A stretch of 22,324 nt of DNA from contig JBILDU010000046.1 of the NCBI GenBank assembly GCA_044352465.1, forward strand, positions 1 to 22,324. The letters run 5' to 3'. Position numbers and translations under genes: made by a program. The DNA is from Bdellovibrionota bacterium. Its GTDB lineage: Bacteria > Bdellovibrionota_C > UBA2361. The notes under the pieces are model-generated. The model worked only from the letters and a program-made list of their open reading frames with translations. It did no database searches and was not told the origin of the DNA. Below are positions 8,624 to 10,311 of this stretch, one piece after another. How positions within the stretch are numbered: position 1 is the first letter of the stretch; every line of letters starts with the position of its first letter.

Positions 8624-8720
8624 AACCACCTCATAATCTAAACCGAAGGAGGTAAACGCGAAAGGTATTTCGGTTGGGCCCCCAATCAGCATCGAGCGAG
8701 AGCTATTTCCTGGACCAGCC

Positions 8721-8785
8721 CGCCGAGCGGGAAAGGAATTGGGCCTGAGCGCCGAGCGGGAAAGGAGTCGGGCCTGAGCGGGAAA
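8721..8785. repeat. 29-bp tandem direct repeat, 2 copies plus a partial
   Basis: CGCCGAGCGGGAAAGGAATTGGGCCTGAG (8721-8749), CGCCGAGCGGGAAAGGAGTCGGGCCTGAG (8750-8778), then CGGGAAA. Confidence 0.85.
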
Positions 8786-8837
8786 CCAATAAGAGCTTTA
8801 ACGGATAAGAGCCCTTCGCCTGGCCATAATTCGAGTA

Positions 8838-8887
8838 GCCATAAAATGGCCTGCCATGAGCGAGCCCCGTAGGGGCGAGTCGAATGG
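8838..8887. repeat. REP-like palindromes abutting the tRNA-Ala 3' end
   Basis: GCCAT-AAA-ATGGC (8838-8850) and CCAT-GAGCGA-GCCCC-GTA-GGGGC-GAGTCGA-ATGG (8854-8887). Confidence 0.6.
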
Positions 8888-8957
8888 ACCCAAGCGGGAT
8901 CGAACCGCTGACCTCTACAATGCCATTGTAGCGCTCTACCAGCTGAGCTATGGGCCC
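8885..8957 (-). tRNA. tRNA-Ala(GGC)
   Basis: GGGCCCATAGCTCAGCTGGTAGAGCGCTACAATGGCATTGTAGAGGTCAGCGGTTCGATCCCGCTTGGGTCCA: full cloverleaf, anticodon GGC, G3:U70 alanine identity pair. CCA tail not encoded. Confidence 0.97.
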
Positions 8958-8989
8958 GAAGTGACCGGAAATACCCGGATTGCGTCGGA

Positions 8990-9018
8990 ATCTTAGTTGG
9001 AAACAGCGGATTTGTATA
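8990..9018 (-). promoter_or_regulatory. Sigma70-like promoter for tRNA-Ala
   Basis: Minus strand TATACA-N17-TAAGAT, 32 nt upstream of the tRNA. Confidence 0.5.
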
Positions 9019-9079
9019 GAGTCGCTAGGGCGAAAAAGTGCTTTAGACGCCTCCTATTTGGGGATGTATCCCCGCTCAT

Positions 9080-9106
9080 TTGCACAATTTCCTACACTTG
9101 TATAAT
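9080..9106 (+). promoter_or_regulatory. Sigma70-like promoter for the tRNA-Pro unit
   Basis: Perfect TATAAT at 9101-9106; TTGCAC at 9080-9085 (15-nt spacer, shorter than optimal). Confidence 0.55.
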
Positions 9107-9133
9107 CTCCCCAGGCTTGAGCCCGGTTTTAGC

Positions 9134-9170
9134 CGAGCTTTAGCAAAGACCGGTAGGGTGTTCCCTTGGG
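9134..9170 (+). pseudogene. Degenerate copy of the tRNA-Pro 5' half, ending at the anticodon
   Basis: CGAGCTTTAGCAAAGACCGGTAGGGTGTTCCCTTGGG versus tRNA 9286-9322 CGGGCTGTGGCGCAGACTGGTAGCGCGTTCCCTTGGG: 29/37 identical, no gaps. Confidence 0.8.
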
Positions 9171-9280
9171 TTCGCATGTCAGTAAGAGCAGAGCTCTTGA
9201 GACTCATGCGGATAACGACTTGATGGGTTCTCGCGACCATCAAGACGGCCCCAACCCGAGGCCAAATACCGGTGACCTTT
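9145..9280 (+). ncRNA. Candidate structured RNA leader (long stem closing a two-hairpin junction) upstream of tRNA-Pro
   Basis: Pairings: ACCGGTA 9149-9155 / TACCGGT 9267-9273; CCTTGGGTT 9164-9172 / AACCCGAGG 9253-9261; CGCATG 9173-9178 / CATGCG 9205-9210 enclosing AAGAGC-AGA-GCTCTT; CTTGATGG 9219-9226 / CCATCAAG 9237-9244. Confidence 0.5.
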
Positions 9281-9285
9281 CATTT

Positions 9286-9359
9286 CGGGCTGTGGCGCAG
9301 ACTGGTAGCGCGTTCCCTTGGGGTGGGAGAGGTCGGAGGTTCAAATCCTCTCAGCCCGA
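9286..9359 (+). tRNA. tRNA-Pro(GGG)
   Basis: CGGGCTGTGGCGCAGACTGGTAGCGCGTTCCCTTGGGGTGGGAGAGGTCGGAGGTTCAAATCCTCTCAGCCCGA: cloverleaf, C1-G72, A73, anticodon GGG. CCA tail not encoded. Confidence 0.97.
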
Positions 9360-9366
9360 TTCGTTT

Positions 9367-9528
9367 TATGCCTAGCCGCTTATACCTAGCCGAACTCGGC
9401 GAAGCCGAGATTGGGCTGACGGGCAGGGCGAAGCCCTGCAGCCGTCTCGGTGAATCCCCGAAAAAGATTTGAACCGACGACCTCGCAGAGGCTGACGAGG
9501 TAGCGCTCACGGAGCGAGCGACATCTTT
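9367..9528. repeat. Hairpin-rich tRNA trailer containing an inverted copy of the tRNA-Pro 3' half
   Basis: TATRCCTAGCCG twice; CTCGGC-GAA-GCCGAG; GCAGGGC-GAA-GCCCTGC; CCTCG/CGAGG; CGCTC-ACG-GAGCG. ATTGGGCTGA (9410-9419) and GATTTGAACCGACGACCTC (9466-9484) are complementary to 9351-9360 and 9329-9347. Confidence 0.75.
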
Positions 9529-9534
9529 AGTAAC

Positions 9535-10311
9535 CTATTTCGCGTGGCCGCCTCGCGAAAGCTCCCAAAGCTTCGCGTATTTCATGAAGACGTAATACGA
9601 TTCGAGCAGCGCGACGATTAATCCAGGCAGTCCCTCGCGAAATCCCCGCTTCACTAAGTAAAACTTGAGAAACCGGGCCGGCGGATTGAACAAGAGCTTT
9701 ATCATCGAGGCCTTCTTCCCGTTCTCGAACATCGAGCGGGCAGCGGTTGAGGAGTAGTTGTTCAGCGAACGAATCTGGTGTCCCATGTCGCTATAGGTGT
9801 AGTGGCGGAGCTCCCCCTTGAGCCGTTTGGTGCGCCCTACAACGGTTGCCTTTTCGTGTGGGTCTTTTCCTCCCCATGTGGTCGCTGCCCGACGGCAAAG
9901 CCGGAGGCGATATTCGGGGTACCATCCGCCCTTACGCCACCATCGGTTGAGATAGAAAACAACTCGGGAAAGCTGGAAACCATTCAACCCGTCCGAATGA
10001 GGGGGCTCAATGGCCCTCAGAATCTCGTCTCTCAGCTCTGGTGAGACCTCCTCATCAGCGTCCAAATTCAGAATCCACTCACCCCGACATTGCTCGAGGC
10101 CAAATTGCTTCTGAGCCACAAAACCTGGCCAGGGGCGCTCAAAGATACGCTGGGTGTATTCGCGACAGATTTCGAGGGTTTGATCGGTGCTACCGCTGTC
10201 GATGACGAGAATCTCGTCGCACCAGCGAACGCTCTCAAGGCAGCGCCGAATATTTCGCTCTTCGTTACAGCAAACGATGAATGCAGATATGAGCGGTGCG
10301 GTGGGCTCCAT
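9535..10311 (-). CDS. Glycosyltransferase family 2 (LPS-core beta-1,4-glucosyltransferase, WaaE/LgtF-like)
   Basis: ISAFIVCCNEERNIRRCLESV, VIDSGSTD, WPGFVAQKQF, WILNLDADE, GWYPEYRLRL, FLKFYLVKRGFREGLPG, KYAKLWE. Start at ATG 10311 (10329 is an alternative). Confidence 0.93.
   Translation of the reverse strand: MEPTAPLISAFIVCCNEERNIRRCLESVRWCDEILVIDSGSTDQTLEICREYTQRIFERPWPGFVAQKQFGLEQCRGEWILNLDADEEVSPELRDEILRAIEPPHSDGLNGFQLSRVVFYLNRWWRKGGWYPEYRLRLCRRAATTWGGKDPHEKATVVGRTKRLKGELRHYTYSDMGHQIRSLNNYSSTAARSMFENGKKASMIKLLFNPPARFLKFYLVKRGFREGLPGLIVALLESYYVFMKYAKLWELSRGGHAK

Follow-up and report, generated by a model that had tools for sequence, protein, structure and literature searches.

Why should an intact tRNA gene stand between broken pieces of itself? 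The question is raised by a 22,324-nucleotide (nt) stretch of DNA (contig JBILDU010000046.1, positions 1 to 22,324, of the Bdellovibrionota bacterium assembly GCA_044352465.1; the whole stretch is called the window below), in which tRNA-Pro(GGG) is preceded by a degenerate copy of its own 5' part, two hairpins and a segment antisense to the gene, and is followed by a trailer complementary to its 3' part. An earlier note, made from the letters alone, had read the arrangement as either a cis-acting switch in the maturation of this tRNA or a footprint left by some non-autonomous element with tRNA genes as its targets. It is the second of these that we favour: with moderate confidence, we regard the two flanks as probably being decayed copies of a small, non-autonomous, lineage-specific mobile element with a two-hairpin core. 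The footprint gains its support from a core which covaries, is dispersed over 45 of the 91 genomes analysed from the order, adjoins about ten tRNA species and has also inserted into an insertion sequence (IS) and an intron.

The core is 75-85 nt long and consists of hairpin A, a short AACAU-like joint and hairpin B with the loop GAGCUAGCGA, followed by GAUUC. A covariance model of the whole unit (R1) also matched sites without tRNA-Pro, there by the hairpin part only; R2 is a model of the core that includes the window's copy, whilst R3 was built without the window. In an alignment of 25 cores (A4), 88.4% of cells pair as against 66.3% in shuffles, with none of 500 shuffles reaching the observed value; 18 of the 19 pairs have changes on both sides, and slid registers pair at 28-40%. 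Applied to the 22-kb window, R3 gives a sole match, at 9169-9242 (17.3 bits, E 0.0064), and it finds a unit at tRNA-Val in the same genome, which is part of no model, with 47.2 bits (E 2.6e-10). The helices hold 18 G-U against 7 A-C oppositions, which mildly favours the tRNA-sense strand as the one that folds. When seven loci with intact units were compared with Rfam at E up to 1, only tRNAs and sub-threshold noise were returned, and the two-hairpin core is a previously unannotated family; no such unit is described in the literature searched, which consisted largely of work outside subscription journals and of main texts rather than supplements.

The arrangement seen in the window recurs in relatives (genomes are cited here by G numbers, the window's own being G000). 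The same order of parts is found 5' of tRNA-Pro(GGG) in G001, G004, G007, G008, G015, G021 and G051, often in tandem with a unit length of ~150-181 nt: tRNA positions 1-37/38, hairpin A, hairpin B (loop GAGCTAGCGA), an antisense segment of the form CCCC(A)CCCCAAGGGC, complementary to the anticodon arm across position 37/38, ~24 nt of linker (more in G008), and then the next unit or the intact tRNA. The antisense matches tRNA-Pro at 13/13 positions in G007, and the core of the window, between the 5' copy and the antisense, is placed as it is in these relatives. RNAalifold predicts 35 pairs for eight such units, 17 of them with compensatory change; thus the flanks, which the earlier note had left open to refutation by their absence from relatives or by a lack of compensatory change, are present there and their stems do change in compensation. 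A pattern scan for antisense, linker and tRNA, with one genome per species, returned 22 loci, seven of them in metagenome genomes deposited as Bdellovibrionota, Deltaproteobacteria, Dadabacteria or Pseudomonadota. The other 15, all from Promicromonospora, differ in their leader and were treated as unrelated; there tRNA-Pro(GGG) is preceded by a GGCCCCAAGGGGCC hairpin and by CTTGAgcatgcTCAAG, a repeat of its anticodon stem.

Matches to R2 number more than 100 in the core-bearing genomes of the order, with 1-17 per genome, and in a phylum-wide sample of 124 genomes only one of the 33 lying outside the order has any. Thirty-eight cores with their flanks were examined for the hosts into which they had settled. 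A same-strand tRNA lies within 100 nt of 20 of them, and 10 more, by eye, adjoin partial tRNA copies within arrays or at the ends of contigs, so that 30 of 38 adjoin tRNA sequence in the orientation of the tRNA; two, at a single locus of G045, lie beside tRNA-Tyr in the inverse orientation and six are elsewhere. The tRNA species called by ARAGORN are Pro-GGG, Pro-UGG, Val-UAC, Trp-CCA, Thr-UGU, Met/Ile-CAU, Arg-CCU, Asp-GUC, Ser-GGA and Tyr-GUA, to which Gly-UCC and Arg-UCU can be added by eye.

Two types of unit are found at these genes. The upstream type runs from tRNA positions 1..X through the core, an antisense of 11-17 nt to the intact tRNA across X and a linker to the intact tRNA; in the downstream type the intact tRNA is followed by a trailer, the antisense, the core and tRNA positions Y..end, often with a copy of the trailer. 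The value of X depends on the tRNA, being 31 for Arg, 38 for Pro and 46-50 for Val, Trp, Thr, Met and Asp, and in the cases read by eye the junction falls after GG (or TG) and before T. The partial copies which accompany the insert at tRNA genes are 31-50 nt long; a copy of tRNA 1-46 is identical at 46/46 positions in seven cases, and the antisense often matches at 12/12 to 16/16 positions. Of 26 cases scored automatically, 16 have an antisense that spans the junction; the ten misses, among them the window's own unit, are arrays, wrongly chosen neighbouring tRNAs or worn copies. A clean unit of the upstream type is present in the window's own genome at tRNA-Val(UAC) (G000:C80), with a 46/46 copy and a 12/12 antisense. 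A partial copy 5' of tRNA-Val reaches 29.5 bits in Rfam, just over the tRNA threshold of 29. In one genus tRNA-Val is, by eye, a plain gene with the promoter directly upstream in close relatives, carries a worn unit in G076 and full units in others. Full units have a promoter-like site 5' of the partial copy, again as judged by eye.

Sites away from tRNA genes show what was inserted. Both G074 and G064 have an IS110-family element (PF01548, PF02371) with a core in its 380-nt non-coding region on the 3' side, in antisense orientation relative to the transposase. R2 matches none of six IS copies whose transposases are 77-80% identical (G012, G068, G058, G076, G070 and G066), and the non-coding regions of G012, G070, G058, G068 and G076 align on both sides of the core: at the aligned site G012, G070 and G076 have a small hairpin, ..CGGGG^TCACACCG.., against an insert of ~85 nt in G074 and G064, and G058 and G068 have the same gap by BLAST. 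No large duplication accompanies this insertion. In G031 (C29) a core occupies domain I of a group II intron without an open reading frame (ORF) (RF01998, RF00029; locus ~1350-2139). The related introns of G075, G076 and G020 have no core at that place, and the idea that the core is an integral part of domain I was rejected on these three. The sister copies of both the IS110-family element and the group II intron therefore establish, from comparison at the sequence level, that the core is a discrete insertion. A third core associated with an IS, in G016, lies ~250 nt beyond another IS110-family gene which is 24% identical.

Multiplication within genomes is visible too. In G005 the core is held within a repeat of ~268-290 nt with terminal inverted repeats of ~14-18 nt, of which there are 13 full copies at ~90% identity to the query copy; an autonomous parent of this repeat was sought and contig-end fragments only were found, with no transposase beside the three copies inspected. 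The cores at the Gly, CAU, Arg and Pro genes of G008 are mutual nearest relatives (72-79% identity) and closer to each other than to cores at the same tRNAs in other genomes, which implies spread, or gene conversion, within that genome across tRNA targets.

How well does the window itself fit this pattern? Its parts, all but the divergent neighbour on the plus strand, are as follows.

8885-8957, minus strand: tRNA-Ala(GGC), divergent neighbour (ARAGORN, Rfam).
9079-9106, plus strand: promoter-like site TTTGCA-16-TATAAT, sigma-70-like, 5' of the partial tRNA copy (comparison with shuffles).
9133-9170, plus strand: degenerate copy of the first 38 positions of tRNA-Pro(GGG), which stops in the anticodon loop after GGG (direct repeat; alignment with intact copies of relatives).
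9172-9211, plus strand: core hairpin A, with outer stem 9172-9178/9205-9211 (TCGCATG/CATGCGG) and inner stem 9184-9189/9193-9198 (AAGAGC/GCTCTT) (fold, pair counts).
9219-9244, plus strand: core hairpin B, stem 9219-9226/9237-9244 (CTTGATGG/CCATCAAG) (inverted repeat, alignment, fold).
9249-9263, plus strand: antisense segment CCCCAACCCGAGGCC, a degenerate form of CCCCACCCCAAGGGC (conserved block in relatives).
9268-9274, plus strand: ACCGGTG, complementary to the D-loop ACCGGT (9150-9156) of the upstream copy (minimum-energy fold).
9285-9360, plus strand: tRNA-Pro(GGG), intact (ARAGORN; RF00005, 60 bits against a threshold of 29).
9410-9419, plus strand: segment antisense to the 3' strand of the acceptor stem (ATTGGGCTGA), opening a split block (inverted repeat).
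9423-9439, plus strand: small GC hairpin GCAGGGC-GAA-GCCCTGC within the antisense block (in an inserted stretch, ~9420-9465; also in G001).
9466-9484, plus strand: segment antisense to the T arm, completing the split block (inverted repeat).
9476-9520, plus strand: remnant of a downstream-type unit, hairpins 9481-9500 and 9504-9516 (alignment with G001).

All the parts which the earlier note had picked out were recovered by these means. The degenerate 5' copy is one member of a direct repeat of 37 nt at 78% (9134-9170 against 9286-9322), both members ending in the anticodon loop; 29 of its 37 positions are identical to tRNA positions 2-38, and ARAGORN makes no tRNA call on 9133-9170. The two hairpins follow it, and then the upstream antisense to the 5' part of the tRNA, in the two segments 9249-9263 and 9268-9274. 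CCCCACCCCAAGGGC, of which the first segment is a worn form, is the complement of the tRNA-Pro anticodon arm across position 37/38, whilst the pairing of the second with the D-loop (columns 39-44/201-206 of an eight-sequence alignment) has changes on both sides in two of the eight sequences, at one pair. The trailer is complementary to the 3' part by inverted repeats of 10 nt at 90% (9351-9360/9410-9419) and of 19 nt at 89% (9329-9347/9466-9484). The single promoter that had been placed ahead of all these parts corresponds to the promoter-like site at 9079-9106. One sigma-70-like site was seen against a mean of 0.4 in shuffles, and relatives without the unit have, by eye, comparable TTTGCA..TAnnnT sites immediately 5' of tRNA-Pro. 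Nor did the window contradict the remark that the architecture was not recognised as a described family, or the statement that integrase and transposase are lacking: Rfam 15, run over 8700-9700 at E up to 10, gives only the two tRNAs above threshold and assigns the flanks to no family, and among the 19 window ORFs Pfam found no integrase or transposase, 18 being matched, all to housekeeping-type families, and one having no match. The synteny of the tRNA-Ala and tRNA-Pro pair is kept across the order.

Other repeats are found around the two tRNA genes. Just 3' of tRNA-Pro, 9366-9392 holds a direct repeat of 13 nt, TTATGCCTAGCCG / TTATACCTAGCCG, with a start-to-start distance of 14, of which G001 has one copy. 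Downstream of tRNA-Ala(GGC), 8711-8790 is made up of three tandem 29/22-nt units (CCGAGCGGGAAAGGA-type) which resemble the reverse complement of the 3' end of tRNA-Ala and look like partial 3' copies. A hairpin-rich stretch beside tRNA-Ala (8844-8887) recurs at the same place in relatives and is dispersed in G034, in at least six partial copies. Short GC hairpins with loops of the GCGAAGC type are abundant, both in the window (for example 9396-9410 and 9423-9439) and at the loci of relatives, and are nested in other repeats, among them partial tRNA copies of G015, G016 and G004, where they lie in the D loop.

G001, which belongs to the same genus, aligns with 8885-9521 throughout at 71%, with a mean column identity of 79% over 9060-9540, and this conserved alignment, together with the same order of parts in relatives, indicates that the segments are more than chance. 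Of the two units in the window, the upstream one (9133-9284) has diverged but is complete, and the downstream one (9410-9520) is truncated, having neither hairpin B nor the 3' tRNA copy, both of which are kept in G001. The reverse holds for G001, where hairpin B of the upstream unit is deleted and the downstream unit is matched by R2 (C247:2624-2702, 38.9 bits) and, at hairpin B, by R3 (28.5 bits, E 1e-5). Further signs of wear in the window are the degenerate antisense, a hairpin B loop that has left the family consensus (GTTCTCGCGA against GAGCTAGCGA) and a downstream antisense split by the GC hairpin, this block being unsplit (GGGCTGAGAGGATTTGAAC type) 3' of tRNA-Pro in G010, G009, G016, G002 and G014. 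Such a pattern of wear within one genus appears to be a better fit for a decaying remnant than for a conserved switch, and the flanks in the window are worn copies which probably do nothing essential. BLAST of the flanks against their own genome found no second copy and tRNA-like pieces only; the unit at tRNA-Val surfaced with the covariance model alone.

Environmental reads reproduce the locus. Two lake metagenomes hold 8928-9313 without differences, and a third gives a variant with small insertions: CATGT follows 9174, within hairpin A, and a duplicate of GAGGCTGAC follows 9487. In one RNA run, contigs span the two tRNA genes only and, judged by their differences, come from other organisms.

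If the flanks are indeed copies of a mobile element, its success at tRNA genes may be understood as follows. The partial duplication would leave the tRNA gene intact and the insertion would therefore be tolerated; the direct repeats could allow both tandem gain and precise loss by recombination; the antisense may recognise the target, on DNA or on the transcript; and the unit would be transcribed within the leader or trailer of the pre-tRNA and then trimmed off.

Several observations weigh against the mobile-element reading. Units at the same tRNA persist across families (at least six for Pro, two for Val) with their stems kept and with 5' copies that are often identical to the tRNA, and selection for a function of the transcript would, by its persistence and kept stems, look the same. 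The antisense is able to pair with the intact tRNA, so that alternative pairings exist, and the strand of the active form is suggested by the G-U and A-C counts only. The window's own core, as given above, is a weak match to R3. All data are from draft metagenome genomes, in which arrays break contigs. No recent pair of filled and empty sites was found at a tRNA gene. Finally, no partner enzyme emerged by co-occurrence across the 91 genomes: RVT_1 is found in 20 of 45 genomes with the core and 19 of 46 without, and IS110-like transposase in 18 of 45 and 24 of 46 respectively, neither being associated with the core, and the window's own genome has no IS110-like transposase match. Y1_Tnp, present in 84 of the 91 genomes with several genes per genome, is so near to universal that it cannot discriminate those which bear the core; no RAYT gene flanked by cores was found, no systematic search having been made.

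A bolder form of the idea, which we put forward tentatively and consider unlikely, is that of a guide module that retargets itself. Here a protein-free element of ~100 nt, core and adjacent antisense together, would find a tRNA gene or transcript across GG^T by 11-17 nt of complementarity and be written in beside the gene together with a partial tRNA copy, either by cleavage and joining of a piece of tRNA to the core on the transcript, which would then be copied back into DNA, or by a guide-dependent recombinase.

The related proposal in which the core is the scaffold that a protein binds, the antisense guides a trans-acting recombinase, nuclease or ligase to the tRNA gene or its transcript, much as IS110/IS1111 recombinases are directed by bridge or seek RNAs, and the partial copies are its products seems to us improbable. 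It draws on an antisense that matches the intact target perfectly across the junction (several cases with 12/12 or 13/13 as counted by eye, and the junction spanned in the 16 of 26 already mentioned), on its being specific for each tRNA beside a constant core, on the near identity in hairpin B of one genome's cores at four tRNAs, which implies retargeting, and on the three cores in 3' non-coding regions of IS110-family elements. It can also appeal to the seekRNAs of 70-100 nt with short target-complementary stretches that are described in PMC11187229. However, the core runs antisense to the transposase and R2 finds it in none of the six sister IS copies searched, which makes it a guest rather than the RNA of the IS itself, and it shows no co-occurrence with IS110-like transposase. 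The guides of seekRNAs, according to the same paper, lie inside the fold and match both target strands, whereas here a single antisense lies outside the core.

Could the unit instead be a cis-acting RNA device, as the earlier note had offered as its other option? The co-transcribed antisense would then alternate between local partners and the body of the tRNA, controlling its folding, its processing by RNase P or at the 3' end, or the output of this isoacceptor. A promoter-like site 5' of the partial copy, here and, by eye, at tRNA-Val and tRNA-Pro of relatives, would make the unit part of the primary transcript. There is covariation in the stems, a given tRNA retains its units in different families, and the minimum-energy fold predicted for G007 pairs the antisense with the true anticodon arm. 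In the window, however, the predicted minimum-energy fold of the precursor has the upstream unit closing on itself, with 9249-9263 (by way of 9163-9171) and 9268-9274 paired to the upstream copy, and the cloverleaf is free. The energy of this fold over 9114-9365 is modestly low, with a z-score of -2.16, and 5 of 200 shuffles fold equally well. A device for maturation is also difficult to reconcile with cores that have no tRNA to mature, namely those of the IS110-family non-coding region, the group II intron and the repeat with 13 copies; about half of the genomes do without the core and close relatives have plain tRNA-Val and tRNA-Pro genes, and the tandem arrays and the decay within the genus fit a dispensable insert. 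We therefore give this explanation little credence.

It is quite unlikely that the flanks are scars of integrase-mediated integration and excision at a tRNA hot spot, with the partial copies as old attL/attR sites of lost islands. tRNA-Pro(GGG) is a real integration site in the order: in G015 (L042 730-1881) a tyrosine integrase (PF00589, E 5.9e-27) stands directly 3' of tRNA-Pro(GGG), with a 49-nt 3' copy 19 kb away, and more 3' part copies are found in G010, G032, G013 and G005. Partial tRNA genes resulting from island integration are, moreover, well documented (PMC9897764). The copy in the window is, in contrast to that of G015, the 5' part of the gene, lies 115 nt upstream and has no integrase in the window. 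Upstream 5' copies with antisense are not products of island integration, independent deletions would not leave the same covarying core beside ten tRNAs, and the core is found at tRNA-free sites too. Neutral tandem duplication of the tRNA 5' region with chance hairpins, involving neither element nor function, is disfavoured and can hardly be right, for while direct repeats of 37-50 nt promote slippage and unequal crossing-over and arrays of 150-181-nt units are seen, chance hairpins are at odds with the covariation controls, 45 of 91 genomes have the core, which returns at loci unrelated to each other, and the antisense is perfect and tRNA-specific.

If a mobile element is favoured, does it belong to a system already described? 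REP sequences and REPINs (RAYT, Y1 HUH) and elements derived from IS200/IS605 resemble the unit in being small (~80-110 nt), non-autonomous, hairpin-based and dispersed within a lineage, with no gene of their own and, to go by the case of the IS non-coding region, no obvious short target duplication; Y1_Tnp genes, as noted, are abundant. A REPIN is an inverted doublet of REP sequences, present in tens to hundreds of copies, with copies flanking the RAYT gene. The two hairpins of the core, on the other hand, are unlike in sequence and loop, there are 1-17 copies per genome, the targets are mostly tRNA genes, and part of a tRNA and an antisense specific for the target belong to every unit. A miniature of the IS200/IS605 kind would be expected to insert 3' of a fixed short target, with subterminal hairpins and no duplication of the target. 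The junction falls, by eye, after GG and before T and the IS case has no large duplication, yet at tRNA genes there are copies of 31-50 nt, and no link to a transposase was found.

Group II introns carry a short stretch that pairs with the bases immediately 5' of their insertion site and with a few beyond it; the unit, as an insertion with a complementary segment of this kind, resembles their pairing of exon-binding with intron-binding sites (EBS/IBS). The core of ~80 nt is nevertheless far too small, the units have no domain V/VI or reverse transcriptase, and matches to RF00029 or RF019xx were found only in the host intron of G031 and not in the flanks of the window or the tRNA-linked units. 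T-box leaders are likewise structured leaders with complementarity to tRNA. They recognise tRNA by a specifier codon plus the T-box bulge, whereas here the complementarity is to the anticodon stem or variable region across the insertion point and the unit lies 5' of the tRNA gene itself.

Integrative elements aimed at tRNA genes also keep the host tRNA intact through partial duplication (PMC9897764); the unit differs in its length of 100-180 nt rather than 9-23 kb or more, in having no integrase, and in its 5' copies, antisense and tRNA-free sites. The bridge and seek RNAs of IS110/IS1111 are short structured modules with a target-complementary stretch (PMC11187229), and free-standing small-RNA modules are reported for ISPpu9 in PMC12288879. 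The core differs from these in lying antisense to the transposase and in having one antisense outside the fold rather than two guides within it. As an IS110-family seek or bridge RNA it was rejected, R2 matching 3 of 22 loci (21 of the IS110 family plus that of G016), in antisense and without co-occurrence with the transposase. The tRNA islands, seek/bridge RNAs and group II pairing each fail on at least one tested feature, and REPINs and IS200/IS605 miniatures appear to do so as well.

Small hairpin repeats are usually seen as intergenic clutter; here they resolve into a defined, covarying core with a strong preference for tRNA genes and a fixed rule which spares the essential target, namely partial gene copy, antisense across the junction, and intact gene. 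This accounts for one class of 'tRNA fragments' which a gene finder may call wrongly, and models R2 and R3 provide a handle for annotating such units in the order. The antisense particular to each tRNA points to recognition of the target by base pairing with no adjacent protein gene, which, if confirmed, would bear on how guide-directed mobile elements arise and retarget. Were the guide module to prove true, it would represent a new way for a mobile element to choose and at the same time spare an essential target, one that is naturally reprogrammable, given about ten tRNA targets and four of these in one genome.

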